Of a stretch of 64,000 nt of DNA, positions 1,706 to 22,779 are shown one piece after another (positions within the stretch are counted from its first letter, which is position 1; every line of letters begins with the position of its first letter). A program made the translations under genes and the position numbers. Below the pieces are notes generated by a model. It ran no database searches. It saw nothing but the letters and a program-made list of their open reading frames with translations, and had not been told where the DNA came from. Origin of the DNA: a virus; the IMG/VR virus record IMGVR_UViG_3300042541_001760, positions 53,689-117,688 of that record; one strand, 5' to 3'.

Positions 1706-3568
1706 TCAATCATTTAACAATCTGTTCAATTCATTCTCCATTTCACCTAAAGAATTCTTTGCCCTAGACAAATTTATATACTCACTTTCAGATACTAAAC
1801 TACTATTTTCTAATAATATATTCGCACTATCTCTATTTGAAGATTCGGGTGTTACTCCCGCTTCTCCACCCGGAGTTGGTCCTGGTGGTGGTGGTGCGAT
1901 ACCTCCACCTTCTTCTCCACCCATTGGTGGTGGTGGTTCCATTCCTCCCATATCACCACCCATATCTCCGCCAGGTGGTGGAGGTGGTACTGCGGCGGAC
2001 GCTGAGGTTGTTCCCGTTTGTTGTCCGTATAATTTATCAATATTATCAAATATACCTGTATGAACAATAATTGTTGGTGTATTTGTAAGTTCGGCCGCGA
2101 CTGCTTTCTCAATTCTTTGTTGTTGTAAATCCAATCTAATCTCTTCGTCAGAGAATCCTAAGATATGTTTCTTAGCCCAAGATTGTGATACAGGGGCGAT
2201 ACCCTCAATTCCTGCAACCGCATCCTTATATAATAATATCTTCTCTTTCCAAACATCAATTTTTAACAAATCAGCCTGTGTTGATGGATTAGATAATGCT
2301 AACGTAAAGTTAGATAACTCGTCTTCAAAACCTAAAAGAAATAAATGGATAATGGCTATTTTATTCATCTCAGCCAACATACTCTTTTGAATACGATTAA
2401 TAGTTCTCGCAAAACGAATATCCATCAATGATAGATTTTTACCATCTCCAACAACCTCCTCAAAACCTAAGAACGCTTTTGGGACTCTCAATGCGGTTAA
2501 TAGTTTCTTTTGAATATACTCAATATCGGCGATTTCCGATAAGTTAGTCGCTCCGGGAAGTGTTGTAATAGGGTCAGGAGCGGCAGCATCTCTAACAGGT
2601 ATGAAGTAATCTTGGTCAACCGCCATTTGGTTAAATCTCATATCAACATTACCTGTGTTATTATCTACAACTTGAGAACGCTTGAACTTGTTTGCCATAC
2701 GTTGTACATACGGTTCAACATCCTTATCATCCATATTACCTACGAATATCTTGAACATTCTTCTTTCGGGGGCTCTTGATGTTCTGTAAATTAACATCGC
2801 ATCCTCAGACAATAATAACTGTTTCCAAATTCTCCTCGCCTTTTCCAACATAGATGTACCATAAGGTAACTTTCTATCATCCCCCAATAATCTAAAGTGG
2901 GCAATTTCCCAAGAATTAAATTCCATATCCTTGGCTTTCCATTTAAATCTCAATCCTGTATTTCTTGGGTCTTGTTCGGTATTTGTAGTTTTTGATGCCA
3001 TACCCATCTCCAATCTTTCAATCTCAATGTTTGGTAACTGCATACAACCAACAACCCCTCTTTCAGTATCCAATTTTAGATAAACAAAATTATCACCATA
3101 TTTACAAGCATTTCTTGTCCACATTGGTAAGTTTGTATTAATATCCAAATTGTTATTAAACAAATCCGATAATATTGATTTTATTCTCTGTGATTCAGAA
3201 TAAATCTGTAACATATCACCATTTTGGTCAACCGTGGTGGATTCCTCACCATAGATATCCAACGCTGCGGATATTTCGGGTGTGTACTCCATAGATTCAA
3301 AATCATAGAATGATGCTAATCTTGTTGGTTCGTAATATGTTGCTTGGGTATATAAATTATTCTCAATCTTAGTCCATTGATTGGATAAGTAGAATGTTTG
3401 TTGAGCTTGGAGTTTTTCCTTCTCGTATTGTTGTTTACTGTTTGTTTTTAGTAATTCTGTCTTATCGTATTTGTAGGTCGGATAATCTTGACCTAATAAT
3501 GAGTAAGGACCGAAGGCTTGGGTTAATCTTTGCCAAACGGTCAAATTTTGATTATTGTTATTTTCCAT
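1706..3568 (-). CDS. Portal vertex protein, T4 gp20-like, with Pro/Gly/Met/Asp-rich C-terminal tail
   Basis: 620-aa protein. IYRTSRAPERRMFKIFVGNM and TTLPGATNLSEIADIEYIQKKLLTALRVP align with T4 gp20 segments [20 protein letters not shown] and [29 protein letters not shown]. The gene directly follows the large terminase. The C-terminal low-complexity tail (PPPPPGGDMGGDMGGMEPPPPMGGEEGGG...) is unusual. Confidence 0.9.
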   Translation of the reverse strand: MENNNNQNLTVWQRLTQAFGPYSLLGQDYPTYKYDKTELLKTNSKQQYEKEKLQAQQTFYLSNQWTKIENNLYTQATYYEPTRLASFYDFESMEYTPEISAALDIYGEESTTVDQNGDMLQIYSESQRIKSILSDLFNNNLDINTNLPMWTRNACKYGDNFVYLKLDTERGVVGCMQLPNIEIERLEMGMASKTTNTEQDPRNTGLRFKWKAKDMEFNSWEIAHFRLLGDDRKLPYGTSMLEKARRIWKQLLLSEDAMLIYRTSRAPERRMFKIFVGNMDDKDVEPYVQRMANKFKRSQVVDNNTGNVDMRFNQMAVDQDYFIPVRDAAAPDPITTLPGATNLSEIADIEYIQKKLLTALRVPKAFLGFEEVVGDGKNLSLMDIRFARTINRIQKSMLAEMNKIAIIHLFLLGFEDELSNFTLALSNPSTQADLLKIDVWKEKILLYKDAVAGIEGIAPVSQSWAKKHILGFSDEEIRLDLQQQRIEKAVAAELTNTPTIIVHTGIFDNIDKLYGQQTGTTSASAAVPPPPPGGDMGGDMGGMEPPPPMGGEEGGGIAPPPPGPTPGGEAGVTPESSNRDSANILLENSSLVSESEYINLSRAKNSLGEMENELNRLLND

Positions 3569-3631: not shown

Positions 3632-5404
3632 TCATCGTTTGTTACCAAATAACCAACCATAGTCAATATAGTCCTGTCTTGATGCTCCTTGTTGTCTTGG
3701 GTCTTGGTATCTTTGTTGTATATTGGGCGATCCAGGATTAAACGAAATTGACTTGGCTGGAGACTCATCAACGTTAACCGTCCAAGATTCCAACATCGCT
3801 TTTGTATGTTCTGTAACCTTTCCTAATTGACTAAATGAAGATTCACCAACATAAATTGCCATCGCAATGGACATAAGTAAATCATCGTGTTGACCCTTTT
3901 GATGATCAGGTCTACCACTAATATAAACAAAAGTATTCATCTCGTTTAATAGACGATTACTATGAATAATAAAATTATGTCTTACCGCCTCCTCAAACGC
4001 CGCAATTATCTGAACTCTCTTATTATTGAAGTTAATACCCGGTATCTTCTCATTTTGCTTTGGGTCGTATTTCCATTTGTTTTGATAATCAACACCATCA
4101 ACATATAAATCCCTATAACCCAACTCCTGCATTTTTCTAGACGTAGATACTCCCATTCCTCCTGTTATATCAACAACAACAAAACAAGAATACATATTAG
4201 CCCATTTAAAGGCAATATCCGCCATAATGTCTGGTGGTACCTTACCAACATATTCGGCAACTTGTTCTCTCTCATCAAAATCTATAATTTGGAATGTTGA
4301 GTAATCCTCACTATCTCCTCTTGATACGTCAACCCCCATAATGTATTTGTGACCAATTACAGGTTCTTTCCATATCCATAAAGAGTTTGCCATCATCTTA
4401 TTTGTCGGCTCTGAAATGGTATTTTCACGAATCTTGGTAAGTGTCTTTGAATCAAACACGTTATCACCAGATCCAAGGAAGTTACACTCCAATTCCTGAG
4501 AAACTTTTCTCTTGTCGTATTTTAACTTCTTTACCATTCCCTCAAACCAAGAAGAACAAGGTTTAAATCCGTCTTTAAAATAAGGTTTTAGTTTTTCGTG
4601 GTCACCACTATTTGGGTGATAATGTTCTATTTTTACTACTGCATCTGATGGGTATTGTTCCTTATTTAACAAATAGTGAATAATATCATCCGTTTTAACC
4701 AAGAACATATCTTTGGTATATCTTGGATCTCTATACCAAAACATTTCAGATATTTTAAAATCATTAAACCCTCTTAACGCCTGGTCATAGATTTCGTAAT
4801 AAATGGGGTCATACCCGTTTGGTGTTGAAATTACAATAACTTTACCACCCGTAGATAGTGAAGCCATACAGGCTGACCAGAAATCCGCATCCGCTTCAAT
4901 GTAAGCAGCCTCATCAAATATTAGTATTGTTGGTGTATAACCACGTAAAGCATCCTTAGATGTTGCTACCGCCTTTACTTCACAACCATTTGTTAATTTG
5001 TAATGTCTTTGTGAGTTCTTTTCTTTAGCAAATCCAATATCAACCCAAGACGGCCATTGTTCAATAAACCCTCTGACTTTATTAGCCATCTCTTGGGCGG
5101 TATCCAATTTATTGGCGATAATTAGAATCTTCTCAGGTGTTTGTTTTTTCGCGAAGGCTATTTTCTTAGACGCCCAAGCGGCGGTTACGGTGGATACGCC
5201 CGCCTGTCTATACTTTAGGGCGATATTCTCGTTATTATTCTCATAATCGTCAAGTAAGGATATTTGGTCGGGAAACAATTCTAAAGGAACAAATCTAGAT
5301 ACCGTATTATCATACGTCTGTAAATACGTTTTAAGTGCATAAGGGGTATCCCTCATACACTTAACATATTCTATTAAAACTTGTTCCTTTGTTATATTTT
5401 GCAT
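3632..5404 (-). CDS. Terminase large subunit (TerL), T4 gp17-like
   Basis: 590-aa protein. N-terminal ATPase with Walker-B-like ILIFDEAAYIE and the adenine-binding/coupling region VIVISTPNG. C-terminal RNaseH-like nuclease with acidic motifs MGVDVSRGDSEDYSTFQIIDFDE. Adjacent to the portal gene. Confidence 0.9.
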   Translation of the reverse strand: MQNITKEQVLIEYVKCMRDTPYALKTYLQTYDNTVSRFVPLELFPDQISLLDDYENNNENIALKYRQAGVSTVTAAWASKKIAFAKKQTPEKILIIANKLDTAQEMANKVRGFIEQWPSWVDIGFAKEKNSQRHYKLTNGCEVKAVATSKDALRGYTPTILIFDEAAYIEADADFWSACMASLSTGGKVIVISTPNGYDPIYYEIYDQALRGFNDFKISEMFWYRDPRYTKDMFLVKTDDIIHYLLNKEQYPSDAVVKIEHYHPNSGDHEKLKPYFKDGFKPCSSWFEGMVKKLKYDKRKVSQELECNFLGSGDNVFDSKTLTKIRENTISEPTNKMMANSLWIWKEPVIGHKYIMGVDVSRGDSEDYSTFQIIDFDEREQVAEYVGKVPPDIMADIAFKWANMYSCFVVVDITGGMGVSTSRKMQELGYRDLYVDGVDYQNKWKYDPKQNEKIPGINFNNKRVQIIAAFEEAVRHNFIIHSNRLLNEMNTFVYISGRPDHQKGQHDDLLMSIAMAIYVGESSFSQLGKVTEHTKAMLESWTVNVDESPAKSISFNPGSPNIQQRYQDPRQQGASRQDYIDYGWLFGNKR

Positions 5405-6678: not shown

Positions 6679-7470
6679 TTAAATATTAATTCCTAATTCA
6701 CCCCAACTTAACCAAGATGGTACCGATTTTTTACCCGCTTTAGGTGCTGGTTTAACTCCGGGTTTAGGTTTATATGGTGTTGAAGGTGTTTTTGTTTTTT
6801 CCTTTTCTTTTGGTGGTGCGATGGTTGGACTACTTTGTTCTTTAGTTTCCACCTTAGCCTTAGGTGCGGGTTTAACTCCCGGTTTTGGACTATATGGTGT
6901 TGAAGGTTTTTTAGTTGTTTCTCCCGGCTTTACCGTAGGTACTTTTGGTTTAACTGGAGTTTGAGTTTCAGATTCTTTAATCATATCTAAAAATTCTTTT
7001 TTACTAATTTTTGGTTGAATATTTCTTTCCAACAAAGATACGATTTTATTTTCTAAAAACAACTCGGACGGGTCTCTTCCTTCTTTTACGGATTTTTTAA
7101 CATCCATAACACATCTTTCGTATTTCTTCTTGTCTTTTCTACCTACAGTGGAAGTACAAATAGCCCAAGGATTGTATTTTTTGGATTTACCCTTACCCTC
7201 TTTCATTTCACTTTCCTTTGGGGTAGCCATAACTTCCCCTGTTGTGGTTTTAGTAACATTATATCCTTTTGGGTTTGGGGGTAAAGATCCACCACCTGTT
7301 CCTATTTTAAGGGATGTTTTTGTAACGGGGGTAACTTGTTCCTTAGATTCTTCTTTACCCTCGTTCAATTTCTTATAAAGTTTAACCAATTGTGATTCAG
7401 TTAAACTTGCTAATGTTTCGGCTTTAAATCCCATATCCATTAATTTAAATGCTGCGTTATCAGTTTTCAT
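6679..7470 (-). CDS. Lys/Pro-rich repeat protein (possible basic internal/DNA-binding protein)
   Basis: 263 aa. Internal direct repeat STPYSPKPGVKPAPKAKVETKEQ / STPYKPKPGVKPAPKAGKK. Very basic. The N-terminus contains LTE. Confidence 0.55.
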   Translation of the reverse strand: MKTDNAAFKLMDMGFKAETLASLTESQLVKLYKKLNEGKEESKEQVTPVTKTSLKIGTGGGSLPPNPKGYNVTKTTTGEVMATPKESEMKEGKGKSKKYNPWAICTSTVGRKDKKKYERCVMDVKKSVKEGRDPSELFLENKIVSLLERNIQPKISKKEFLDMIKESETQTPVKPKVPTVKPGETTKKPSTPYSPKPGVKPAPKAKVETKEQSSPTIAPPKEKEKTKTPSTPYKPKPGVKPAPKAGKKSVPSWLSWGELGINI

Positions 7471-9575: not shown

Positions 9576-11903
9576 TTAGATTTTGTTAGCAAATTCCTTA
9601 TAGAAATTTTTAAATATTTCTGAGTGGTCGTAACTATCCTTATCCGTACAAATAACTTTTCCTTTGTAGTTAGAATCGTCTTTATGGGTGCAGTACCATT
9701 TTAATACCTCCCTTGGGACATACCCTGGTGGTTTATTTCCCCAATTTTTCCAATTACATGTCATGTAAGTATTACTACCAAAATCTAAATTAATATATGG
9801 TGATTCTCCTTGTCCCTGACCTTCAGGTGAAGGGTCAATTAAACCCACAAATTTCATATTACTTCTTGGACCTACATAATCCCACATTTTCATACCTCCT
9901 TTAGAAAACCCGGCAATTGAGGTTACGGTCGCATTGTAATTATCTTTCACGTGCTTTATAGCCTCTTCAACAGAGGTTCCCCAATGAGTTATCACTACCA
10001 AAACTTTACCTTTAATTGGGTCAACTCCCGATCCGTAAAAACTTTCATTTAATGAAATCTGACCATTTTGATTAGAATGTAATCCCGCAAATAAAACGTG
10101 TGCTTCACCACCCTTAAAATTATCAGGTTTATAAACTAAGTAATTCTTAGACTTTCTTTTTTCGGTTGGTTGATTTTTATCTCCGATTGTGGATTCTTTA
10201 GATTTTACAGGTTTATTTTCTATCTTATCTATGTAAGGTTCTATATCTTCTGATTGGATATTTTTTTCTTTTAATTTTCCTAATAGAACTTTAACCATTT
10301 CAGGTGTCGCAACTGAATTTACTAAATATTCACCATTATATTTACCAATATATTTTTTATCAATTATAGTTTCAGGGTCAACGGCTACCCCATTTAATAT
10401 TACCTCAAAATGTAAGTGTGGATATGTGGAATTTCCTTTTTTTGATTTTTCATCTTTCTCCCCATTACAACCCCCCTCTTTACCACCGTTACATCCACCG
10501 GTTTTACCAATAATTTGACCTTGTGTTACCGTATCACCTTTTGAAACATCTATTTCATTACAATGACAATATTTTGTTTGATAACCGTCTGAGTGTTGTA
10601 TTAAAATATAACCTCCGCATTTACCAACACCAAAGGATGACCCTACCACTTTTCCGTCGGCGGGTGATTTTATCGTAGTATTTCTATCACTACGTAAATC
10701 AACACCATTATGTGGTCTACCTCCACGAGGTCCAAACTTTGAAATCACCACTAATGTACCATCCAATGGAGGTAAAATTTTTGATTGATTGTCAGTTTCA
10801 TCAGTTGATTCAGCTTTTTCAACTGCTTCTATATTCTCCTTCTTGAATTTTTCAACTTGTCCAGAGGTTTCAGGTCCATATAAACCATCAACACCGTGAT
10901 TTGGTAACTTATAACCTAATAGTTCCAACCCTATTTGTATCGACTCAACATTTTCTTGAAATGAATACTCACCTCTTTTTTGTTGGGATACAGGTTCTTG
11001 GATTGAATCTAAAGTTTTATAGAATTCGGAAACATCGTCACTAACTATGTCTGCTTTCTTTGGGTTATCAACCTTAACTTCACCTTCTTTATTTTTTTTA
11101 CCCGAAAATAAATTAGATAAAAAATCTCTTATTTTTCCTTTATTTTTTTCTTGTTCACCAATTAATTTTTGCTCCAATGACAATTCCCTATCGACCTTTT
11201 CTTTTTCAAAGTTGAATAGTTTTTCAATATACCCATTTCGTCTAAGGTATTTAAATACCAAATTTTCGTAGGATAATTCTCCACCACCCTCTAATCCGGA
11301 TTGTCTATATTTTTTAAGTTTATCTTTGAAACCGCCTAATAACTTTAAAGCAGCCTCTAAGTCCTTACCTTTAGCCGAATCAATAACCTCATCAATTTTT
11401 TCAGTCCATTGGTCAACTTTTGACATAAGAACTTCTTTATCGGCTTTAAAATCACCTTTTTTAGGTGGTGTTAACCATTTGTTATATATAACGGAATATA
11501 CCCCTGTTGAGAAGTGGGGTTCATTACTGTCCTGTAGATATAACTCAACGTCATAACCATAAATCTTTATATTATGGTCAGAGTTAAATAATGTTTTTTT
11601 TAATTTAAAAAGTTCTTTATAAAGGTCTAATTGTTCTTTTGGGAATTGTTCAAAATCCACAATTACGTGTAAATCAAAATCAGAGTATTTTGACCAATTA
11701 TAGTTAGCCATAGAACCTGTCATATGAACATCGGACACGATAATATCAATACCTAAAAATTCTATGAATTCATAAGCAATTTCTAATAACTTTTCTCTAA
11801 TTTCAGGTTTAAGTTTTGTCGACTTATTGTCCTTAACCCACACCTTTGGATTTAGTCCTTTTTTTAAATCAAAGCTTGATAAAATTTCACTATCCTTTTT
11901 CAT
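9576..11903 (-). CDS. Multi-domain cell-wall hydrolase: N-terminal minimal nucleotidyltransferase fold, PG-binding domain, M23 peptidase, C-terminal alpha/beta-hydrolase (GXSXG)
   Basis: 775 aa. Pol-beta-type nucleotidyltransferase signature TGSMANYNWSKYSDFDLHV (GS-x10-DxD). PG_binding_1-like IQIGLELLGYKLPNHGVDGLYGPETSGQVEKFKKEN. M23 motifs HNGVDL (HxxxD) and HLHFEV (HxH). C-terminal GFSKGG nucleophile elbow. Confidence 0.85.
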   Translation of the reverse strand: MKKDSEILSSFDLKKGLNPKVWVKDNKSTKLKPEIREKLLEIAYEFIEFLGIDIIVSDVHMTGSMANYNWSKYSDFDLHVIVDFEQFPKEQLDLYKELFKLKKTLFNSDHNIKIYGYDVELYLQDSNEPHFSTGVYSVIYNKWLTPPKKGDFKADKEVLMSKVDQWTEKIDEVIDSAKGKDLEAALKLLGGFKDKLKKYRQSGLEGGGELSYENLVFKYLRRNGYIEKLFNFEKEKVDRELSLEQKLIGEQEKNKGKIRDFLSNLFSGKKNKEGEVKVDNPKKADIVSDDVSEFYKTLDSIQEPVSQQKRGEYSFQENVESIQIGLELLGYKLPNHGVDGLYGPETSGQVEKFKKENIEAVEKAESTDETDNQSKILPPLDGTLVVISKFGPRGGRPHNGVDLRSDRNTTIKSPADGKVVGSSFGVGKCGGYILIQHSDGYQTKYCHCNEIDVSKGDTVTQGQIIGKTGGCNGGKEGGCNGEKDEKSKKGNSTYPHLHFEVILNGVAVDPETIIDKKYIGKYNGEYLVNSVATPEMVKVLLGKLKEKNIQSEDIEPYIDKIENKPVKSKESTIGDKNQPTEKRKSKNYLVYKPDNFKGGEAHVLFAGLHSNQNGQISLNESFYGSGVDPIKGKVLVVITHWGTSVEEAIKHVKDNYNATVTSIAGFSKGGMKMWDYVGPRSNMKFVGLIDPSPEGQGQGESPYINLDFGSNTYMTCNWKNWGNKPPGYVPREVLKWYCTHKDDSNYKGKVICTDKDSYDHSEIFKNFYKEFANKI

Positions 11904-12269: not shown

Positions 12270-12659
12270 TTAAGACCAAGAAGCGTCTCCAATATCACCT
12301 TGATACTTTCTAAATTCTCTATCGTGGTCAAATCCAGATTCACCACCACTCTTTTGTGGTCTTCTAGTTTTGATTGTTAAAGGTTTTCCTGTTTTTTCTT
12401 TATATGTGTTAAACATTGCCTTACCCATATCACCACCTAAAGCTCTTCTTTTTGGATGTTTTTCGTGAAATGATTCATAGTCATTAAATTCCTCTGAATC
12501 AAAATCATCATCATTTATATCATCGTCAGAGAATTGGTCGGTATCCATATCAACCCATTTTTCATCACCACCAAATGAACCATATCTTTCACCTTCGCTG
12601 ATTATTCTTTTTACTAACCTAACTAAATCACTTTCTGTTAATCTTACAATTTTTTTCAT
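12270..12659 (-). CDS. Hypothetical protein with leader type b (MKKIVRLTESDLVRLVKRIISEGE)
   Basis: 129 aa. The N-terminal 25 residues are near-identical in pattern to the N-terminus of ORF 51238-51753 (MKVIKLTESDIKKIVKRVISEEE). Confidence 0.5.
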   Translation of the reverse strand: MKKIVRLTESDLVRLVKRIISEGERYGSFGGDEKWVDMDTDQFSDDDINDDDFDSEEFNDYESFHEKHPKRRALGGDMGKAMFNTYKEKTGKPLTIKTRRPQKSGGESGFDHDREFRKYQGDIGDASWS

Positions 12660-12705
12660 AATATAATTTTTATTATAAATATATTACGACTTGTAAAAAA
12701 AATAT

Positions 12706-13077
12706 TTAAAGCAAAGATATCTTTTTCTTTCTCTCAATCTTTTTTTCATTAGGGATAAACACGCTTAATAACCCATCCTCAATAGTTGCTTCAAGTTTAG
12801 AGGTGTCAATATTTAATCCCAAATCATAAGAGAAGTGAACACTCTTAGTTTTATCACCACTTGATGATTTAATTACACGACTACCATCAATGGTTAAAAT
12901 TGTGTCATCAACATCAACTTTTAAATTTGACTTATTAAAGCCAGGGACGCTGAATACATAATAAGCCCCATCTTCGGTTTTATGAACATCATAGTCACTG
13001 ACATAATTTCTTCTGAATTTAGCATCAGTAAAGTCGTTTAGGATTGTGTCGAAAATTGATAAATTTCCTGTTTTCAT
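12706..13077 (-). CDS. Small heat-shock protein, Hsp20/alpha-crystallin family
   Basis: 123 aa. ACD-like core YYVFSVPGFNKSNLKVDVDDTILTIDG...ATIEDGLLSVFIPNEKK. Confidence 0.75.
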   Translation of the reverse strand: MKTGNLSIFDTILNDFTDAKFRRNYVSDYDVHKTEDGAYYVFSVPGFNKSNLKVDVDDTILTIDGSRVIKSSSGDKTKSVHFSYDLGLNIDTSKLEATIEDGLLSVFIPNEKKIERKKKISLL

Positions 13078-13206
13078 AGTTTTTTAAATTTTTATGTTTA
13101 TTATTTGATTGTGAATTATTCAACTGGTGTGCCAAATAAAATATACGACATTTTGTCAGTTAGTATATGACAATTTGTCACTATTGAACTATTGAGTATA
13201 ATTTCA

Positions 13207-13216
13207 TATATTTATT
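13207..13216 (+). promoter_or_regulatory. Putative Bacteroidetes-type -7 promoter box (TATATTTATT) for the ClpC-like gene
   Basis: TAnnTTT(A/G) motif 14 nt upstream of ATG 13231. The same box recurs before most genes in the window. Confidence 0.35.
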
Positions 13217-13230
13217 AAAAAAATAAGATT

Positions 13231-15273
13231 ATGAATGAGATAATGGACGGTGATGGACCTTCATCAAGAAAAAAAGGCGACAACGATAGTGGTACTCCTG
13301 TACTGGATAACTTCAGTAAAGATTTAAATAAATTGGCTGAGGAAGGTAAATTAGATTCAGTTATTGGTAGAGATAAAGAGATATTAAGAATTGCTCAGAT
13401 ATTATCAAGAAGAAAGAAAAATAATCCTATTATTATTGGAGAACCGGGTTGTGGTAAGACCGCAATTGTTGAGGGATTGGCAATGAAAATCCAACAAGGT
13501 GAATGTCCGAGAAATTTAGCGGATAAGAGAATTGTCCTGTTAGATATGACATCCATTGTTGCGGGAACAAAATACAGAGGTCAGTTTGAGGAAAGAATGA
13601 AAGTGATTATTGAAGAATTACAATCACATCCCAACATTATTATCTTCATAGATGAGATTCACACCATTGTAGGTGCAGGTAATTCATCAGGATCATTGGA
13701 CGCTTCAAACATATTCAAACCAGCATTGGCAAGAGGTGAGATTCAATGTATCGGAGCTACAACACTTGATGAATACCGTAAAAACTTTGAGAAAGACGGA
13801 GCGTTGGAAAGAAGATTCCAAAAAGTGGTGGTTGACCCTTCAACGAAAGAAGAAACTCTACAAATTCTAAAAAACTCAAAAGACAAATACGAGAGTTACC
13901 ATAAAGTTATTTTTAGTGACGAAGTATTAATCACTTGTGTTGATTTGGCGGACAGATATATTACCGATAGAGAGTTTCCCGATAAGGCTTTTGATATTAT
14001 AGATGAAGTTGGGGCAAGAAGTCAGGTGGATATTAAAATGCCTGAAGTTATTGAGAAATTGAAATTGGACGCAATTGATATCAAACAACAAAAGATTGAT
14101 GTTGTAAAGAAACAGAATTACGAACAAGCGGCAGAACTTAGAGATAAGGAGAAAAAAATTCTGAATAAACTTCACGTAGAAAAAATGAAGTTTGAAGAAG
14201 AAATGAATATCAATAAGAAAGAAGTTGAGATTGAATTGGTTTATGAAGTTGTATCCAATATGACAAAAATTCCTGTTGGAAAACTTAACATTGACGATTC
14301 AAAATCATTGGTTGATTTGGAGGTTAATATCGGATCGAAAGTTATTGGTCAATCTGAAGCGGTTTCAAAAATATCAAAAGCAATTAGAAGAAATAGATTA
14401 GGTATTAAAGACCCAAATAGACCCATAGGATCGTTTATCTTCTTAGGATCCACAGGTGTGGGTAAAACACACTTAGCCAAGCAATTGGCGAAAGAGATAT
14501 TCGGTAGTGAAGATTCTTTAATTAGAGTTGATATGTCCGAATATCAAGAAAAACACTCAATCTCTCGTTTAATCGGATCTCCTCCGGGATATGTTGGTTA
14601 TGATGAAGGTGGTCAATTAACTGAACAAGTTAAAAACAAACCATACTCCGTTATTTTATTTGATGAAATTGAAAAGGCAAATAAAGACATATTCTCAACT
14701 TTACTACAGGTATTGGATGATGGTCACCTTACAGATGGATTGGGAAGAAAAATCAATTTCAAAAATTGTCTTATCATTATGACATCAAATATTGGTGTTA
14801 AAAAATTACAAGATTTTGGGGCTGGTGTTGGATTCCAAACTAAGTCCTATGTTGAAGAAGAACAAAAACGAGACATCCTTAAAAAGGAACTTCAAAAATT
14901 CTTCGCACCTGAATTCCTAAACAGAATTGATGATGTGATAATCTTTAACACCCTAAAACAAGAACAAATTAACGAAATCGTTAAGATTGAACTTAATAAG
15001 TTATCATCAAGATTGACTAAAATCAAATACCAATTCAAATTTGAATCTTCGGTAACTGATATGATATCAAAAGTTGGTTTTGATGAAATGTATGGGGCTA
15101 GACCTTTAAAGAGGGCTATCCAAGATAAAATTGAGGATTATATTTCCGAGGAAGTTCTTAGAGGTGAACTTAAAACCGAAACACCTTATGTGGTTACGGC
15201 AGAGAATGACGTTATTATTATAACGGAAGAGAAAAAAGGAAAGAAGGGTAAAACAAAAAAGGAGGTTGAATAA
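13231..15273 (+). CDS. ClpC/ClpB-like double AAA+ chaperone ATPase lacking the N-domain
   Basis: 680 aa. D1 Walker A GEPGCGKTAIVEGLA and Walker B IIFIDEIHTIVGAG. Short UVR-like middle motif KQNYEQAAELRDKEKKI. D2 FLGSTGVGKTHLAKQLA...RVDMSEYQEKHSISRLIGSPPGYVGYDEGGQLTE...LFDEIEKA...LQVLDDGHLTDGLGR. Confidence 0.9.
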   Translation: MNEIMDGDGPSSRKKGDNDSGTPVLDNFSKDLNKLAEEGKLDSVIGRDKEILRIAQILSRRKKNNPIIIGEPGCGKTAIVEGLAMKIQQGECPRNLADKRIVLLDMTSIVAGTKYRGQFEERMKVIIEELQSHPNIIIFIDEIHTIVGAGNSSGSLDASNIFKPALARGEIQCIGATTLDEYRKNFEKDGALERRFQKVVVDPSTKEETLQILKNSKDKYESYHKVIFSDEVLITCVDLADRYITDREFPDKAFDIIDEVGARSQVDIKMPEVIEKLKLDAIDIKQQKIDVVKKQNYEQAAELRDKEKKILNKLHVEKMKFEEEMNINKKEVEIELVYEVVSNMTKIPVGKLNIDDSKSLVDLEVNIGSKVIGQSEAVSKISKAIRRNRLGIKDPNRPIGSFIFLGSTGVGKTHLAKQLAKEIFGSEDSLIRVDMSEYQEKHSISRLIGSPPGYVGYDEGGQLTEQVKNKPYSVILFDEIEKANKDIFSTLLQVLDDGHLTDGLGRKINFKNCLIIMTSNIGVKKLQDFGAGVGFQTKSYVEEEQKRDILKKELQKFFAPEFLNRIDDVIIFNTLKQEQINEIVKIELNKLSSRLTKIKYQFKFESSVTDMISKVGFDEMYGARPLKRAIQDKIEDYISEEVLRGELKTETPYVVTAENDVIIITEEKKGKKGKTKKEVE

Positions 15274-15287
15274 CCTCCTTTTTTTAA
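15255..15287. terminator. Bidirectional rho-independent terminator between convergent genes
   Basis: GGAGGTT-GAAT-AACCTCC hairpin flanked by an A-run upstream and TTTTTTT downstream. Confidence 0.55.
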
Positions 15288-16117
15288 AATGGACTATAAA
15301 TTTTATTAGGTTTCTCCTCTTTAAATTGGTGTTTGGTGTAACCCAATGATTCTATCATTTTTTTACCAACTTTGATACCATTGTAGACATCCTCAACCAC
15401 CACATATTCATTTGCGGTGTGGTAATCGTAGTACCCAATGGAGATATTGATACAAGAAAAATCAAAAGATTCTTTAAGAGCGTAAACATCGGTATAAGGG
15501 TGTGAGAAATATTTTAGTTTATCAGGAAAACTTTCAGTTAGAACTTTATCACATTCTTTAAAAAAGTCAGTCCGTCTGTCAAATAATGTTGTTCCCCAAC
15601 ATCTTTCAGTAACCATCCAATTTTCGGGGGCGTCGAACTGAATTGCGTAACCAACATTTGTAAAGAATGATTTGTCGGCTTTACGAGACCCGTGACATCC
15701 TGTTTCTTCAGATACAAAGAACGCCGCCTTTAAGTTGGGTAACTCTTTTAGTAATTCTAAACAAGCATAGACACCACACTTGTCATCACCTCCAATACCT
15801 GTAGGGTTTCCTTCGTTATTATACGCTTTTAGGGATAACTTAATTTCACCTTGAGCGTTTTCAAGTTGTTCTTCAACGACATTGATTGAGTCCATATTAT
15901 GAACCGTATCAGTGTGTGATACAACACAAGGGAACATAAACCCATTAGGTAAATCACCGGTTTGTTTGGTGGCATAAACATTAAGATGTTCATCCACCGT
16001 ATGGTCAATGTTGTTTTCCGTTAACCAATCAATAAGAAATTGAACCATCTGTTCTTCCTTATAAGTTTTACTTGGTACTGACAATACGTCTTTTAGTAAT
16101 TGATAATTTCTTTCCAT
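15284..16117 (-). CDS. M20/M28/M42-type metallopeptidase
   Basis: 277 aa. Metal-ligand motifs HTDTV, GGDDKCG and the catalytic Glu-Glu SEETGCHGS. Confidence 0.55.
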   Translation of the reverse strand: MERNYQLLKDVLSVPSKTYKEEQMVQFLIDWLTENNIDHTVDEHLNVYATKQTGDLPNGFMFPCVVSHTDTVHNMDSINVVEEQLENAQGEIKLSLKAYNNEGNPTGIGGDDKCGVYACLELLKELPNLKAAFFVSEETGCHGSRKADKSFFTNVGYAIQFDAPENWMVTERCWGTTLFDRRTDFFKECDKVLTESFPDKLKYFSHPYTDVYALKESFDFSCINISIGYYDYHTANEYVVVEDVYNGIKVGKKMIESLGYTKHQFKEEKPNKIYSPF

Positions 16118-16153: not shown

Positions 16154-16600
16154 TTAATCTTTTGATTTGATTTTAAATTTTATATTTTCCACATCATTTT
16201 TACTTGAAACCCAATGAACGTCAGATGGAATTTTTTCTAAGAGATTTGAATAATTTTTTAGTAAGGTATTAAAGTGTTTTTTATTAAACCATTTAGACCT
16301 TTTAATAATTATTTTAACTACATTTTTATCCTTATCTAATAATATTGCCGATCCGGGCGCCATTATACTAACCTCATTCTTGAAAGTATCAAAGTCAAAA
16401 TGTTTTCTCATGCCGTCAAAATCGTCATCATCATCTTGCGACATTAAATTTTTACCCATGTCTTTTGTATAATCGTCACCTTGATAAAACATTGAGTCCA
16501 TAGGAGATTCTAAAATAATGGTATTATAACCTCTTTTTTTATGCATTTCTAATATTCTACCTCTCTCAGATGAATTAATATTGTTGAATAAATTTTTCAT
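16154..16600 (-). CDS. Hypothetical protein
   Basis: 148-aa ORF. A TATAAATAT box sits at 16614-16622, 14 nt upstream of its start. Confidence 0.5.
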   Translation of the reverse strand: MKNLFNNINSSERGRILEMHKKRGYNTIILESPMDSMFYQGDDYTKDMGKNLMSQDDDDDFDGMRKHFDFDTFKNEVSIMAPGSAILLDKDKNVVKIIIKRSKWFNKKHFNTLLKNYSNLLEKIPSDVHWVSSKNDVENIKFKIKSKD

Positions 16601-18075: not shown

Positions 18076-18468
18076 GGGTCCAAAATTGGTATCGACTGGC
18101 ATAGTTGGATATTAAGAGCATACCGAGGCTGAGTTAACCTTGTAAAACTGACTTAAACCGATATACGGCAACGTAATCAACAAACTTTCGGCAGTCGGAC
18201 TTGTTCGCACTTCTGAAACCGTAGCAGTAGCCTAAGGCGAATCTACAACGGGTCGGCGTACATACAACCTAGGAACAGAAGTACTTGCAAAAGGTGTGGT
18301 TTCTATCTAAAAAGAAACATGTGGAGGATTAGTTCTCAGTAAACCGAACCACTTTAAAAATAAGGGAATTGTGAAGTTTCGGATTGGTTAGAAAACCAAT
18401 GTCCTATGTATGTAGAACTTAGTAATCAATATGAACAACACGAGGGTTCGAATCCCTCTGGATCCACC
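18076..18468 (+). ncRNA. ssrA: tmRNA (transfer-messenger RNA)
   Basis: The 5' end GGGTCCAAAATTGGTATCGACTGG resembles the E. coli tmRNA 5' end GGGGCUGAUUCUGGAUUCGACGGG. GCATACCGAGG matches the conserved GCAUGCCGAGG. The 3' end carries the T-arm GAGGGTTCGAATCCCTC and the acceptor strand TGGATCC-A-CC, which pairs with the 5' GGGTCCA. That pairing includes a G3:U70 wobble, the alanine identity element. An internal tag frame ends ...SETVAVA-TAA at 18233-18235. The element lies in a 500-nt ORF-free gap and is followed by a T-run. Confidence 0.7.
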
Positions 18469-18503
18469 TCTAAACCTCATCAGAAATGGTGGGGTTTTTT
18501 TAT

Positions 18504-18845
18504 TTAATAAAGATTAGTTATCCAGTTATATCTTGACTCAATCTTAGGTAAGTATCTATCTAATAAAAAATTATATATTTCATCAGACGGAAATTCGTCT
18601 TGACCCCAATTTGATAAATCTCCGTGATACTCGTCAATAATACCATTTATTATACGTCTTTTAAAATCATCAAATTCCATCCTATTACCATCTCTAAGTT
18701 CTCTTAAAAAAATATCAGTAACGTAATTTAAATTATCTAGTATGTCACTATCTAATGAACTAATATCAACTCTTCTACGTAGAAAAGAAGATTCATTAAT
18801 CCCCATCACTTCCTGTATCCTCTGTATATTTTCTTGTAGATTCAT
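18504..18845 (-). CDS. Leader-family protein (MNLQENIQRIQEVMG N-terminus)
   Basis: 113 aa. Conserved N-terminal 15-mer shared with 20289, 20605, 21462 and 22235. A TATAAATAT box abuts the start codon. Confidence 0.6.
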   Translation of the reverse strand: MNLQENIQRIQEVMGINESSFLRRRVDISSLDSDILDNLNYVTDIFLRELRDGNRMEFDDFKRRIINGIIDEYHGDLSNWGQDEFPSDEIYNFLLDRYLPKIESRYNWITNLY

Positions 18846-18860
18846 AACATATAAATATTA

Positions 18861-19580
18861 TCACACATTGATAATTTTCCATTTCCCTTTGAAGTCCTCA
18901 ACCAAACAAGTTGAATTCTCGCAAAAGTCGCCTGAGTTCATATAATCATCGGTTAATTTTGGGTAATGGATATGTCCACATACGGTAACATCATACCCCT
19001 TTTCTTTTGTTAGTGATTTTGCGTTATCTTCAAAATCAGATACAAAATTAATTACACCTTTAACGCTTTGTTTTACCACATTAGCCAATGAATGGTATGG
19101 TAAATTAAACCATCTCCTTATGTAGTTATATAGGGTGTTGAATCTAATAACAAAATCATACGACCACCCACCGATAACCGCCAACCATCTGGCTTCCATA
19201 ATAACAAAATCCAATACATCCCCGTGATAACAATAATAACTACGACCATCGGCTCCGATATGGACATATTTTCTTACAATCTCTATATTATTTAATGTGA
19301 ATGGTATGAACTCCTTTAGAAAGTCATCGTGATTTCCTCTAATATAAATTACCTTAGTTCCCTTCTCACTTCTTTTCATAAACTTACGAAATATCTTGGA
19401 GCAGTTGTTATTCCATTTTCCCCCACTTTTTAACGCCCATCCATCAATAATATCACCATTTAAAATTAATGTTTCAGATTCGTTCTCTTCCAAAAACTTT
19501 ATAATTTTATTGGTTTGTGATTGTCTTGAACCAAGATGTAGATCACTCATTATTATCGTTCTCCACTTTTTCATTTCCAA
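18861..19580 (-). CDS. Calcineurin-like metallophosphoesterase, LpxH-like (UDP-2,3-diacylglucosamine diphosphatase family)
   Basis: 239 aa. Motifs SDLHLG, LNGDIIDGW, IRGNHDDFL and YHGDVLDF parallel the LpxH motifs DLHL / GDLFEAWIGDD / HGNRDFL / HGDTLCTDD. Confidence 0.65.
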   Translation of the reverse strand: MEMKKWRTIIMSDLHLGSRQSQTNKIIKFLEENESETLILNGDIIDGWALKSGGKWNNNCSKIFRKFMKRSEKGTKVIYIRGNHDDFLKEFIPFTLNNIEIVRKYVHIGADGRSYYCYHGDVLDFVIMEARWLAVIGGWSYDFVIRFNTLYNYIRRWFNLPYHSLANVVKQSVKGVINFVSDFEDNAKSLTKEKGYDVTVCGHIHYPKLTDDYMNSGDFCENSTCLVEDFKGKWKIINV

Positions 19581-20317
19581 TATCCTTTATCGTTTTTGAA
19601 GTATGATTTGTTATTGTGGTTGAAGAATGAGTTAATCATTAATTTTATCATATACATAACACCTTTATTTTTAAATCTTCTTGGTGGTGTATATACTATA
19701 TTATTTATTCTACCGAACTTATTAGGTTTAATTTGTTTTGATAAAATATAATCCTCGGCGACTTTTACGTCCTCATCAAACCCCCCTATTAACTTAAATG
19801 TTTCGGATCTAATCAACATAAAACCACCAAGACAAAATGGTGTAATCCATTTTGAAAGTGATTGTATTACATCAAATGACTTGTATATGTAATTGTATTC
19901 ACCATTGTCAGTCCTGAACTTCGTGGTTACCAAATCTAAGTTATTTTTATGTATTTTTTTTATTGATTGTGTTAGTATTTTTGCATCCAATAGAAACACA
20001 TCAGAATCCATAAATAATACATAGGGGGTTTTTACTATTTTGAATCCTTTATTTCTGGCTATCCCCGGTAATCCACCATCAATTATTATTAAATCAAATA
20101 GGTCTTTATTATGTGTTAATCTATTAATTAATGATTCATAGGTAACCGAATCGTTTGATGAATCACAAACTATAACATTTACTCCGGTTACGTTCCTCTG
20201 ATAATTTAATAAATCTAATGTTTTTAAAATAACATCTTTTTCATTTTTACAAGGAATTACTATTGTGATTAAATTTTTTAAATCCATATTAATCAATTCC
20301 CAATTTTTCCTTAACAT
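19571..20317 (-). CDS. Glycosyltransferase family 2
   Basis: 248 aa. ITIVIPCKNE...VIVCDSSNDS...IIIDGGLPGIARNKG...LFMDSDVFL (GT-A fold with DXD). Overlaps the downstream gene by 10 nt. Confidence 0.75.
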   Translation of the reverse strand: MLRKNWELINMDLKNLITIVIPCKNEKDVILKTLDLLNYQRNVTGVNVIVCDSSNDSVTYESLINRLTHNKDLFDLIIIDGGLPGIARNKGFKIVKTPYVLFMDSDVFLLDAKILTQSIKKIHKNNLDLVTTKFRTDNGEYNYIYKSFDVIQSLSKWITPFCLGGFMLIRSETFKLIGGFDEDVKVAEDYILSKQIKPNKFGRINNIVYTPPRRFKNKGVMYMIKLMINSFFNHNNKSYFKNDKGYWK

Positions 20318-20594
20318 ATTTAATCATAGGTTTTTCATACATTAAATATGAATCCCAATATTGTTGTTCCGTTCCTGTATCATTAATATCGCTAAAATTT
20401 TTTGTGGCTATGAATTGTCTTACCGTATCATAAATTGCGGTGCTCAAACTTTCACCCTCCTCTATTTGGTCTTTAATATCTTTAATCAGGTCATCTAGTT
20501 CGTCAATATCAAATCTCCTCTTGAACCACGGACTAAGATTTTCATTAAGACCCATCATTTCCTGTATCCTTTGTATGTTTTCTTGTAGATTCAT
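20289..20594 (-). CDS. Leader-family protein (MNLQENIQRIQEMMG)
   Basis: 101 aa. Conserved leader followed by an acidic body. Confidence 0.55.
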   Translation of the reverse strand: MNLQENIQRIQEMMGLNENLSPWFKRRFDIDELDDLIKDIKDQIEEGESLSTAIYDTVRQFIATKNFSDINDTGTEQQYWDSYLMYEKPMIKYVKEKLGID

Positions 20595-20604
20595 ACGTTA
20601 TAAC

Positions 20605-21459
20605 CTAAGCAAAATTATTTAATGATGAAGAATCATTATTTTTATTCATAGCAACAGTATTCATTAAATCAATAAAATTATTCATCTTTTCTTGGTTAGT
20701 TCCTTTTAAAGATTTAAAAATGTCTTGATAATGTACGTTTTTTAATATAGTTGGATTTTTAATCATTTTATTATAATCATCTTTAGTAAATTGTTTTTTC
20801 CCCGCATCGTATATACCTTGTTGATTTAGTAAATACCTAATTGGTTGGATTCTATTAATAAATTCACTTGGGGTTGATTCATAATCAAAAACCTTATCAC
20901 CGATTTTATAATTGGGGTATTTTTTATCACCTCCTTGGGTATACTTATAAATTTTTTCTTTTGTTGATTGTGGTATTCTTGAACCTCCGTCATCAACCAG
21001 GTGACCAAATTCATGAGCCGGTATAGTTTCATATCCGGTAACTGGATTCCAATTTTTTGGATTATACTCTTTTTCAAAATACACATGACCTTTCTTATCA
21101 TAACCTTTTGCATCAGGAGTCCATTTATTTTTTTTCCATTTTTTATCTAAATAATCATAATACTCACCCTCATAATTTTTAGGTATCATTAACCCTGATA
21201 CATATCCCGGTTCTTTTGAGATAGCTCTTACGAAGTGTGTTTGGTCTTTAACATTATCCAAATTTTTTAATCTCTCTTTTCTTTCTTTTTCTATAAAATC
21301 TTGAGGTTTATTAGGAAATTCTTTTTTTAATCTTTCTAAGTACATTGTCGAATTTAAATATGATTTCCACCACTGTAGTTGTTTGTCGAATTCACTGGTG
21401 GTTTGCTCATTTAAGCCCATTACTTCTTTAATTCTTTGTATGTTTTCTTGTAGGTTCAT
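20605..21459 (-). CDS. Leader-family protein with HExxH zinc-metallopeptidase motif
   Basis: 284 aa. MNLQENIQRIKEVMG leader. C-terminal AHEFGHLVDDGG (HExxH). Confidence 0.6.
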   Translation of the reverse strand: MNLQENIQRIKEVMGLNEQTTSEFDKQLQWWKSYLNSTMYLERLKKEFPNKPQDFIEKERKERLKNLDNVKDQTHFVRAISKEPGYVSGLMIPKNYEGEYYDYLDKKWKKNKWTPDAKGYDKKGHVYFEKEYNPKNWNPVTGYETIPAHEFGHLVDDGGSRIPQSTKEKIYKYTQGGDKKYPNYKIGDKVFDYESTPSEFINRIQPIRYLLNQQGIYDAGKKQFTKDDYNKMIKNPTILKNVHYQDIFKSLKGTNQEKMNNFIDLMNTVAMNKNNDSSSLNNFA

Positions 21460-21461
21460 AA

Positions 21462-22238
21462 CTATTTTTTAGGAGTTGGGATTTTAGTGTCTTTTATAAA
21501 TTTTCCATACGCATTTTTATATGACTTTTGCGTTTCATCATTTACGTTTTTGGTGTATTGCCAATTCCAATATAAATCTTTGTTTGGTTTGAATCCATAA
21601 AATTTATGAACTTCCTTTTGGGTTGCAGTTACATTCTCACCATTCCAATTCTGACCGACACAAATAAAACCTGTCTCAATATCTTTAATAATGTTTGATT
21701 CACCCAATGTTGTATGTCTATTTTCTAACCAATTCAATCTCTCAATTAAGTTTTGGTAATACATATTGGTCTGACCCCATCTTATAGAACTGAAAAATAA
21801 AACAACATCCGATTCAAATAACTCTTTGGATATCTTCCATAATTCGTCTGAGGGTTCATTTATATTAACCCAACATCTATGATCACCTGACGGGTTTTTA
21901 TCTTTGTCTTTAAGTTTGGCTTTTAATAATCCACAAGAGTTTCCGTCTTTTCTTGATACATTACCTTCACAGGGTAAAATTTTAAGTTCTGGTACATCTA
22001 TCAATACTGACTTATCACCTAATTGGTCTTTTAAATACATCGCAATCATTTTTGATTTTGGTATATCAATATTCTTATCATCCCAATTATATCTGTTTGA
22101 GCAACTTAATAATAAAACTTTTTTTTTCTTTTTTAGAATATCTAATGTTTTCTCAATTGATTTCCATGCGTCCGATTGAACCATTTCTTCCGAAATCATC
22201 ATCTCTCTTATTCTATCTATATTTTCTTGTAGGTTCAT
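21462..22238 (-). CDS. Leader-family protein (MNLQENIDRIREMM), possibly flavodoxin-like body
   Basis: 258 aa. Leader present. The body (VLLLSCSNRYNWDD...DVVLFFSSIRWGQTN) is of unknown fold. Confidence 0.55.
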   Translation of the reverse strand: MNLQENIDRIREMMISEEMVQSDAWKSIEKTLDILKKKKKVLLLSCSNRYNWDDKNIDIPKSKMIAMYLKDQLGDKSVLIDVPELKILPCEGNVSRKDGNSCGLLKAKLKDKDKNPSGDHRCWVNINEPSDELWKISKELFESDVVLFFSSIRWGQTNMYYQNLIERLNWLENRHTTLGESNIIKDIETGFICVGQNWNGENVTATQKEVHKFYGFKPNKDLYWNWQYTKNVNDETQKSYKNAYGKFIKDTKIPTPKK

Positions 22239-22756
22239 TTCTTTGTCTTTTTTACGCAGTTAGGGTATCTTTTACCAAACATTGTCTTCATTCCTTTTTG
22301 GGTGTATCCTGCCCAACATTTCTCTGTGAGTTCCCCTTCTTTCATTTCAGACATTTCATCAATTTCCTCCGAATAATCCTCATTCTTTAAACAATGATAT
22401 TCGTCACCAACATTTTGGAATAATTTACCTTTAAATTTGTCCGCATATTTCTCATTTAGATATTCTATTAGTAAATTATTAAATTCATCCAAATTTAATA
22501 ATACCGAATCTGAGTAAGCCCTAAGTTTCCTATAAGGACCGCACTCTGTTACCCATAAAACACCCCAATCATTTCTATGGAATACGTCTTTATCTTTTTT
22601 ATTATACCATTTACCATATACGTAATTCTTATCACCATATTCAACTTTTAAATCTAATTCGTTAAATACTCTATCAAAGCGACTAAACAGAAAACTTCTA
22701 ATTTTTTCTTCTTTGGTTTCCCTCAATACTCTTCTTATGGTTTCTTGTAGATTCAT
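22235..22756 (-). CDS. Leader-family protein (start moved to internal Met giving MNLQETIRRVLRE)
   Basis: The track ORF starts at 22780 (MFMLYLLHM...). The conserved leader and the nucleotide repeat begin at the Met at 22756. Overlaps the upstream gene by 4 nt. Confidence 0.5.
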   Translation of the reverse strand: MNLQETIRRVLRETKEEKIRSFLFSRFDRVFNELDLKVEYGDKNYVYGKWYNKKDKDVFHRNDWGVLWVTECGPYRKLRAYSDSVLLNLDEFNNLLIEYLNEKYADKFKGKLFQNVGDEYHCLKNEDYSEEIDEMSEMKEGELTEKCWAGYTQKGMKTMFGKRYPNCVKKTKK

Positions 22757-22779
22757 ATGTAATAAATATAACATAAACA

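Follow-up and report, generated by a model that had tools for sequence, protein, structure and literature searches.

What can a peptide of about 22 residues be doing when it stands, almost unchanged, at the extreme N-terminus of proteins that are otherwise unrelated? The gene at 12270-12659 raises this question. It lies in a 64,000-nucleotide (nt) stretch of DNA from an uncultured phage (IMG/VR record IMGVR_UViG_3300042541_001760; G+C content ~33%), which we call the window and on whose numbering all positions of open reading frames (ORFs) are given. A first-pass annotation of the window had described a shared N-terminal pattern on four dispersed genes, at 12270, 51238, 22877 and 48998, one of them coding for a multi-domain lysin, and had proposed that it might be a targeting or propeptide signal. 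Here, we report that this leader is a real, modular and N-terminal tag, constrained as a peptide, restricted to phages and co-occurring with a T4-type protease and head module, and we argue, tentatively, that it may act as a capsid-targeting propeptide.

All four ORFs are present as the annotation had described them, and their leaders are of two types, B1 and B2 (HMM, profile hidden Markov model; aa, amino acids):

12270-12659 (-): gene for a 129-aa protein with a B1 leader (B1 HMM, 57.6 bits at the initiator Met)
12594-12659 (-): coding part of this leader, residues 1-22, MKKIVRLTESDLVRLVKRIISE, last residues I-S-E (B1 HMM)
12675-12681 (-): promoter-like motif TATTTAT, 22 nt 5' of the ATG, with a T-run ahead (motif scan)
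51238-51753 (-): gene for a 171-aa protein with the B1 leader MKVIKLTESDIKKIVKRVISE, coded at 51691-51753 (B1 HMM, 25.5 bits, E 1.9e-7, N-terminal)
51770-51776 (-): TATTTAT before the 171-aa gene (motif scan)
22877-24331 (+): gene for the 484-aa lysin, with a B2 leader, an SGNH/GDSL esterase domain, PG_binding_1 and an SLT lytic transglycosylase domain (Pfam, PHROGs)
22877-22936 (+): coding part of the lysin leader, residues 1-20, MKILVSESQYKRLVESLLDE (B2 HMM, 27.8 bits)
22853-22859 (+): TATTTAT before the lysin gene (motif scan)
48998-49627 (+): gene for a 209-aa protein with the B2 leader MNFNILISESQRKKLIIE, coded at 48998-49051 (B2 HMM, 26.3 bits)
48986-48992 (+): TATTTAT before the 209-aa gene (motif scan)

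Ungapped BLOSUM62 scores were computed for all pairs among the N-terminal 28 residues of 75 genes, with internal segments as a control, and a score of 40 or more was reached by 16 of 2,775 N-terminal pairs versus 0.019% of internal-segment pairs (chance per pair ~2e-4). The two bearers of B1, a leader of 22 residues with the form MKK[IV][IV]RLTESDLxR[IL]VKR[VI]IxE, scored 75 against each other, and the lysin and the 48998 protein, which share the B2 form M-K-I-I-I-T/S-E-S-Q-Y-x-x-L-...-[LI]-x-E of about 18-20 residues, scored 41. Cross-pairs of B1 with B2 within the window reached scores of 31-33, not significant on their own, and a narrow B1 HMM, built from homologues of the 12270 leader and run over the window in six frames, matched 12270 (58 bits) and 51238 (25.5 bits) and missed the lysin and 48998. 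Profile-profile alignment of B1 with B2 gave P = 9.5e-5 over 17 columns in register, and a leader intermediate between them, MKIIITESQLRKLINGVINE, was found. The proposal of one pattern on four N-termini therefore stands in that the four are related, but the pattern falls into two sub-types whose link becomes significant with external data only. The LxE/IxE triplets that had been pointed out in the leaders were borne out, since position 20 of B1 is I, V or L in 168 of 174 proteins and position 22 is Glu in 168 of 174.

The distribution of B1 in metagenomes is wide. A leader-only profile returned 953 matches among 993 candidates from a database of 5.8 billion proteins, with unrelated sequences downstream, and HMMER, run exhaustively over 1.84 billion cluster representatives (50% identity), returned 7,138 at E <= 1e-3, almost all at residues 1-23. 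More than 600 IMG/VR stretches encode [VI]RLTESDL, of which 437 are confirmed relatives, on contigs of up to 322 kb. The annotation had named a lack of N-terminal enrichment as what would refute its pattern, and enrichment was found at both scales: 240 of 252 B1 matches in 83 related loci begin with Met at HMM position 1, and a six-frame HMM scan of the window with five leader types (B1, B2 and three described below) placed 14 of 14 matches at an initiator Met and none internally at E <= 0.01. In the 83 loci, B1 reaches a density of eight per 20 kb and its bearers have a median total length of 132 aa (up to 490 aa); the cargo of the 174 unique B1 proteins from related loci falls into 135 blastp clusters. 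An iterative search with B2 recovered 30 leaders, all 30 N-terminal, on diverse proteins of the same contigs as B1. Non-leader homologues are shared with the window by 50 of 79 B1-selected loci, so that most of these belong to the same broad phage group, and 185,579 species-representative genomes yielded only seven B1 loci, all on contigs of metagenome-assembled genomes (MAGs) or single cells, which indicates that the tag is essentially phage-restricted. A B1 variant, LTESDLHRIVKESV, is present in gut and rumen bins (MKKVIRLTESDLHRIVKESVKKVLxE; L091-L093, L088-L089); the contigs that carry the variant, from gut, rumen and other sources, are large and were binned with Prevotellaceae, Bacteroidales and Bacilli MAGs. 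Its presence on gut and rumen MAG contigs extends the tag beyond the lake clade.

Searches of described sequences returned little. Neither the 129-aa protein nor the 23-residue consensus leader matched any of 50,697 isolate phages by tblastn, and the lysin matched them in its SLT domain only. No Pfam or PHROGs family covers the B leader, a leader profile gave chance-level fragments only among Protein Data Bank (PDB) sequences (best E 0.23), the leader motif strings were not found in the text of ~8 million papers, and the literature on jumbo-phage propeptides held nothing on a B-type tag.

The conservation of B1 has a sharp boundary. Among the 174 proteins it ends directly after E22, and T8, E9, S10, D11, R14, K17, R18 and E22 are each conserved in ~70-98%; polar and charged positions are conserved as strongly as hydrophobic ones, which suggests that the B1 leader contacts a specific protein partner. 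For the 129-aa protein, residues 1-22 are nearly invariant among 43 metagenomic homologues while the remainder drifts or is replaced (mean pairwise identity 83% in the leader vs 49% in the rest). At the DNA level, T8 is encoded by ACA, ACT, ACC and ACG, S10 by both TCN and AGT, R14 and R18 by AGA, CGT and CGA, and Leu by TTA and CTN, and codons at identical leader residues differ in ~39% of comparisons. Such free synonymous change indicates that selection acts on the peptide and not on DNA or RNA.

AlphaFold2 (AF2) models give the leader the shape of a short extended piece followed by a helix. Residues 8-22 of B1 have a hydrophobic moment of 0.66-0.70, a mean hydrophobicity of ~-0.2 and a net positive charge; the moment is low, 0.14, for the B2 helix of 48998. 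In the 129-aa protein the helix spans residues 9-22 at low confidence in a poor model (predicted local distance difference test score, pLDDT, 57). In the lysin, residues 1-20 are modelled at pLDDT 57-65 vs 93-96 from residue 21 onwards, in the SGNH domain; a helix covers residues 7-15 and a strand residues 22-26, with SGNH strand beta-1 beginning at residue 22. This difference in confidence marks the lysin leader as an appended module and not as part of the fold, and the leader was kept in every full-length sequence among the best 120 of 286 lysin homologues. Those listed, down to 36% identity, have the form MKI[IV]ISE[ES]Q[LY]..L...[LI]xE ahead of the first SGNH strand. A hydrophobic-x-Glu is found at the end of both leaders, as [LI]-x-E before the SGNH domain in the lysin homologues and as I-x-E in B1, a candidate site that agrees with the T4 protease motif; B1 contains L-T-E (E9) and the terminal I-x-E (E22), and the lysin leader V-S-E, L-V-E and L-D-E20, the last directly before the domain.

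The cargo behind these leaders is largely featureless to domain searches. The 129-aa protein has an acidic middle (DDDINDDDFDSEEF) and a basic stretch near the C-terminus (KTRRPQK), and neither it nor the 171-aa protein has a Pfam or PHROG match; the cargo of the 209-aa protein contains hydrophobic stretches. The lysin proved to be multi-domain, as the annotation had it, with Pfam placing a GDSL-like domain at residues 25-174, PG_binding_1 at 230-278 and SLT at 388-460, and its SLT part matches phrog_342, 'internal virion protein with endolysin domain' (2.2e-13). When 100 diverse B1 cargos were scanned with Pfam, four had a domain (PG_binding_1 twice, GNAT once and a weak Annexin/L21p-type match once), and there was no replication or metabolic enzyme among these four; a PHROGs scan of B1 cargos added nothing beyond the same kinds of domain, and the cargo was no different from the genome background in isoelectric point or hydrophobicity. 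Some metagenomic proteins (P0284, P0293, P0295, P0313 and others) carry two or three copies of B1, the internal copies lacking Met, and in P0295 the whole leader-plus-domain unit is duplicated in tandem. An [LIVM]-x-E lies within 15 residues upstream of 24 of 41 internal copies vs a background of 23%, the pattern expected of a cleaved polyprotein, and the multi-copy proteins may be polyproteins or fused cassettes.

Several familiar kinds of N-terminal element were considered and rejected. A Sec, Tat or lipoprotein signal peptide is not what is seen, with a charged or polar residue every 2-4 positions and a maximum 19-residue Kyte-Doolittle mean of 0.02. The leader is also unlike that of a ribosomally synthesised and post-translationally modified peptide (RiPP) or double-glycine bacteriocin, residues 23-24 being variable and polar without GG and the proteins, enzymes included, having a median of 132 aa and reaching 490 aa. 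A ribbon-helix-helix domain would account for the strand-plus-helix, but conservation stops at residue 22, the downstream sequence is unrelated and there is no match to a Pfam ribbon-helix-helix family.

B1 and B2 are accompanied by three further N-terminal classes in the same genomes, A (MNLQENIxRIKEMMG), C (MKKFIITEEEKxRILGMH) and D (MNLQExIRRVLREE). The B pattern had been described as distinct from the MNLQEN family yet similarly placed, and it is indeed a parallel, portable module at the extreme N-terminus that has been added onto the lysin. In all, 14 of ~75 window genes carry one of the five classes, those other than B being assigned by leader HMMs as follows:

18504-22774 (-): array of genes with type A (MNLQENIQRIxEVMG) and type D (MNLQETIRRVLRE) leaders
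18504-18845, 20289-20594, 20605-21459, 21462-22238 and 22235-22756 (-): leader genes of this array, the last of them type D
18861-19574 and 19571-20317 (-): two leaderless genes inside the array
46024-47202, 47524-48060 and 16154-16600 (-): genes with type C leaders (hhTEEERxxILxxH)
53474-53845 (+) and 37724-38329 (-): type D leader genes elsewhere

These classes share the placement of B1 and B2: 39 of 42 type C matches in 26 related loci and 32 of 32 type D matches in 13 related loci are at the initiator Met. A 482-aa protein at 42319-43767 (-), whose N-terminus is A-like (MEDQENFNRIKFLIG) and which ends in a PG_binding_1 domain, is a second leader-bearing, cell-wall-directed protein. Residues 24-35 (LTESQLVKLYKKL) of a 263-aa protein at 6679-7470 (-) have a weak likeness, not a significant one, to the B1 core (E 0.06 in the window, 0.008 in the relative L085); this protein lies in the packaging and head region, its leader-like stretch is internal, and we did not accept it as a member.

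In all, 31 gene starts have the motif TATTTAT (extended form ATATTTATAATAAAA) ~12-28 nt ahead of them, often following a T-run, and in all four B genes its distance from the ATG is 12-24 nt. In the window and L085 it also stands, within the head module, before the genes for the portal, a 242-aa core candidate and the protease and before the scaffold-capsid operon, and elsewhere before the genes for the amidase endolysin and a fibre-like protein of 1108 aa; most recognisable metabolic genes have no TATTTAT upstream. This distribution suggests that the leader genes are co-expressed with the morphogenesis genes, and TATTTAT is a candidate phage promoter, perhaps a late one.

The window also holds part of a T4-type head module and a separate endolysin gene:

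3-395 (-): prohead core serine protease, T4 gp21-type (Peptidase_S77), N-terminal 131 residues, truncated by the window edge (PF03420, E 2.6e-13, above the family cutoff)
1706-3568 (-): portal, T4 gp20-type (profile and homology searches)
3632-5404 (-): TerL, large terminase (domain search)
57127-57861 (+): Amidase_3 and LysM protein, without a leader (Pfam)

The protease fragment is 42% identical to the protease of Flavobacterium phage immuto, and its N-terminus contains GILIE20; a full-length gene (243 aa; L085:10490-11218) was found in the relatives L085 and L086, and no fewer than 598 IMG/VR stretches encode this protease with an identity of at least 79%. Past the window edge, the gene order in close relatives is portal, 80 aa, 242 aa, 150 aa, S77 protease (243 aa), DUF4494, scaffold, capsid; in L085 and L086 the scaffold is a very acidic protein of 490 aa (L085:11629-13101), followed by the Gp23 major capsid protein. 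The 80-, 242- and 150-aa products are core candidates. Both a gp21-family prohead protease and a scaffold core are encoded, the former in the window and the latter in L085 and L086. The capsid protein of the relatives contains I-N-E60/A ~30 residues ahead of its PIVRRVF motif, the position at which T4 gp23 is cut. By analogy, the S77 protease is a candidate enzyme for removing the leader. The N-terminus of the Amidase_3-LysM protein, MRKIFISAGHS, is matched by no leader HMM, and the protein is likely, from its domains, to be the canonical lysis endolysin; the leader-bearing esterase/transglycosylase is thereby free for another role, in entry.

As to the phage itself, its portal protein is only 36-38% identical to that of the nearest isolates, Microcystis phage Mel-JY01 and Flavobacterium phage immuto; a near-identity DNA search of the head region against the 50,697 phage records gave no match, and an exact-sequence look-up of the portal protein found no record. 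A Bacteroidota host is indicated by a protein at 35054-37630, which has SprB repeats together with a type-IX secretion domain (CHU_C). A contig of 261,052 bp encodes a protein 100% identical to the window lysin, and the phage is therefore probably a jumbo phage.

We favour, while judging it a little short of probable, a reading in which the B-type leader is an address tag and propeptide comparable to the T4 capsid-targeting sequence (CTS), by which the lysin would be delivered with the virion, as the annotation had envisaged; docking, packaging, cleavage and ejection are steps that we infer by analogy. The extended stretch and N-capped amphipathic helix would dock the newly made protein on one of the conserved parts of the T4-type prohead core, be it the scaffold, a core protein or the protease, and the docked cargo would be enclosed as the shell forms. 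The Peptidase_S77 prohead protease would then cut after Glu at [LI]-x-E, the candidate sites being E22 and/or E9 in B1 and L-D-E20 in the lysin, and the cut cargo would be freed inside the head and delivered into the next host with the DNA. The SGNH/PG-binding/SLT protein would in this way be a virion-delivered cell-wall enzyme, and the 129-aa and 171-aa proteins would be small ejected proteins of unassigned activity. A cell-wall-directed cargo that has no secretion signal needs a route to the wall. This function fits the prohead protease and head module, the [LI]-x-E end, the shared upstream motif and the separate endolysin, from which we infer it.

A number of observations weigh against such a role. 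The B1 tag, with 22 nearly invariant residues, is far more conserved than the mutation-tolerant T4 CTS and has no sequence similarity to it, and it is on none of the 50,697 isolate phage records. At least 14 of ~75 window genes are tagged when the five types are taken together, which implies a very large packaged repertoire, and leaders are sparse beside the head module (0.6 per locus of >=15 kb). The sequence [LIV]-x-E is common, at ~2 per 100 residues, in a proteome rich in E, I and L. B1 variants are also found on MAG contigs from gut and rumen, elements that may or may not have a T4-type head. TATTTAT, at most a putative 'late promoter', also precedes the ClpC-like gene and others and resembles the Bacteroidota host-type -7 box, TAnnTTTG.

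The main rival, which we regard as unlikely, is that the leader serves for docking on, or recognition by, a partner outside the virion, either the phage-encoded ClpC-like AAA+ unfoldase (13231-15273) acting with the adjacent Hsp20 and peptidase or a conserved host protein; in the ClpC version it would be a degron or a tag for remodelling, and would thereby set when many small phage proteins are active. The 12270 gene does lie in a conserved cluster with genes for Hsp20 (12706), the ClpC-like ATPase (phrog_4871, 1e-239) and the peptidase (15284, phrog_4191), and among the B1-selected loci the ATPase recurs in 13, the peptidase in 13 and Hsp20 in 4. By eye, the ATPase is without an N-domain and has a GAGVGFQ loop like the ClpP-docking loop of ClpC. 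Near-invariance on all faces of the helix is what a specific protein partner would impose, and a cargo of 'dark matter' resembles early host-takeover proteins. Yet this synteny is mostly orthology, several of the loci having been retrieved through similarity to the 12270 protein itself, and most B1 genes are far from a Clp cluster; known degrons are short and degenerate, and an always-tagged core cell-wall lysin and PG-binding cargos are implausible substrates for degradation. Nor does a docking tag predict the enrichment of [LIVM]-x-E before internal copies.

Three other explanations are less likely than the docking tag. A generic amphipathic helix could bind the surface of the cytoplasmic membrane or self-associate and so concentrate proteins at the membrane, where T4-type proheads and the lysis machinery assemble, with no packaging or cleavage; the high moment and net positive charge of B1 and the AF2 helices (9-22 in the 129-aa protein, 7-15 in the lysin) agree with this, but such helices tolerate variation at positions of the kind that B1 conserves at ~70-98%, the low moment of the 48998 helix does not suit it, and peripheral binding would not take the lysin to the cell wall, so we consider it improbable. 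We give a similarly low probability to the leader having no address function at all, the bearers forming one fast-evolving paralogue family whose conserved N-terminal peptide is itself active, for example as a nucleic-acid- or protein-binding element. Most cargos are indeed small (median total 132 aa) and have no recognisable domains, and the unit in P0295 shows that leader and domain can duplicate in tandem; set against this are the unrelated folds that are tagged (SGNH-PG-binding-SLT, GNAT and PG_binding_1), the 135 unrelated cargo clusters, the same placement of five leader classes and a boundary at E22 as sharp as is typical of a fused module. A DNA-level element, whether a promoter and 5' coding cassette homogenised by recombination or gene conversion or an RNA signal, is very improbable: a conserved upstream motif (ATATTTATA) and T-run do accompany many leader genes, but the motif also stands before leaderless genes, and the different codons at identical residues, with Ser, Arg and Leu each using both codon families, largely refute a DNA-level repeat.

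Some neighbouring features may be recorded here. The proteostasis cluster that adjoins the B1 gene spans 12706-16117, and its ClpC-like protein is a 680-aa double AAA+ protein. On the other side, a 775-aa multidomain protein at 9576-11903 (-) has a nucleotidyltransferase-like N-terminus, PG_binding_1, an M23 peptidase domain and an uncharacterised C-terminal part; it has none of the leader classes, and homologues are present in 13 related loci. A full-length GOLLD RNA at 24785-25186 (-) (Rfam RF02032, 306 bits, E 1e-86) sits in an ORF-poor stretch past the lysin gene, beside a tRNA-Met at 24702-24777, and is consistent with a lake-derived phage. A phage-encoded tmRNA lies at 18076-18469 (+) (RF00023, 83 bits); ARAGORN did not report a tmRNA and found seven tRNAs in the window (Met twice, Tyr, Cys, Thr, Arg and Glu).

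Returning to the capsid-targeting propeptide, we put forward with slightly more reserve a broader proposal, that in uncultured jumbo phages of Bacteroidota that are T4-like, and perhaps in further lineages, gut phages among them, five or more near-invariant classes of N-terminal address tag (A, B1, B2, C and D) form a hitherto undescribed system, which sorts dozens of proteins per genome (>7,000 families for B1 alone) into the virion for delivery to the host. If this is true, the tags single out a huge set of injected phage effectors that is still unexplored; in this very abundant clade, anti-defence factors, enzymes acting on the cell wall and effectors of host takeover could be among them, and the T4 capsid-targeting principle, studied so far in E. 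coli phages, would be extended to Bacteroidota jumbo phages. A 22-residue packaging signal would identify thousands of candidate virion-delivered proteins straight from metagenomes and could serve as a compact, ready-made means of bringing foreign cargo into phage heads. Even with another partner, a peptide so conserved on such varied proteins would point to an important undescribed interaction hub.

The closest known counterpart is found in T4, in which IPI, IPII and IPIII share a common CTS of 10-19 residues on divergent proteins (PMC9026906); T4 propeptides of this length direct internal proteins to the core, after which they are cleaved off (PMC9026906, PMC5694885), and the prohead proteases of the T4 family cut after Glu, their propeptides often holding several sites (PMC5694885, PMC9026906). 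Here, too, a short N-terminal peptide (~18-22 residues) stands on divergent proteins, its conserved part closes with a hydrophobic-x-Glu, the cargo genes are hypervariable between relatives (PMC9026906), and a gp21-family (Peptidase_S77) protease, an acidic scaffold and homologues of gp20 and gp23 are encoded, the protease having L-I-E20 near its N-terminus where T4 gp21 has LIE-9. The T4 CTS, MKTYQEFIAE, has only the Met-Lys start in common with the B leader, so that the likeness is one of logic and not of sequence family, and the present tags differ in their stronger conservation, their thousands of cargo families against a handful, their five or more leader classes per genome and their internal tandem copies. 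The giant phages phiKZ, 201phi2-1 and SPN3US offer the jumbo-phage setting, which the lysin-identical protein on the 261-kb contig recalls. In giant phages, a gp21-related protease acts on many of the head proteins, cutting after Glu, and diverged paralogues keep identical N-termini, as do SPN3US gp53 and gp54, whose cleavable N-termini hold several cleavage motifs (PMC5694885). Those propeptides are mostly longer than 100 residues, are common only within paralogue pairs and have A/S/G-x-E sites, whereas here one 22-residue tag is spread across unrelated proteins and many genomes.

More distant parallels are also instructive. In encapsulin systems, a short conserved terminal peptide on diverse cargo binds to the inside of an HK97-fold shell, but these peptides are usually C-terminal, are not proteolytically removed and serve few cargo types per system, and no encapsulin is involved here. 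The payload signals of Photorhabdus virulence cassettes and other extracellular contractile injection systems are N-terminal leaders that direct diverse effectors into a phage-tail-like particle; they are longer, disordered and poorly conserved and load the tail tube, and our data do not separate head from tail. The leaders of RiPPs and bacteriocins, such as the prochlorosin precursors, resemble the B tag in combining a conserved leader with a hypervariable remainder in many copies per genome, but the cargos here are proteins of 50-470 residues, including enzymes, there is no Gly-Gly or Gly-Ala site, and partial domain scans turned up no modifying enzyme or C39 peptidase. Together, these comparisons suggest that the B tag works in logic like the T4 CTS and the giant-phage propeptides while being, by its sequence, a member of neither, and what stands out as new against the known systems is the scale, the conservation and the multi-class organisation of the tag.

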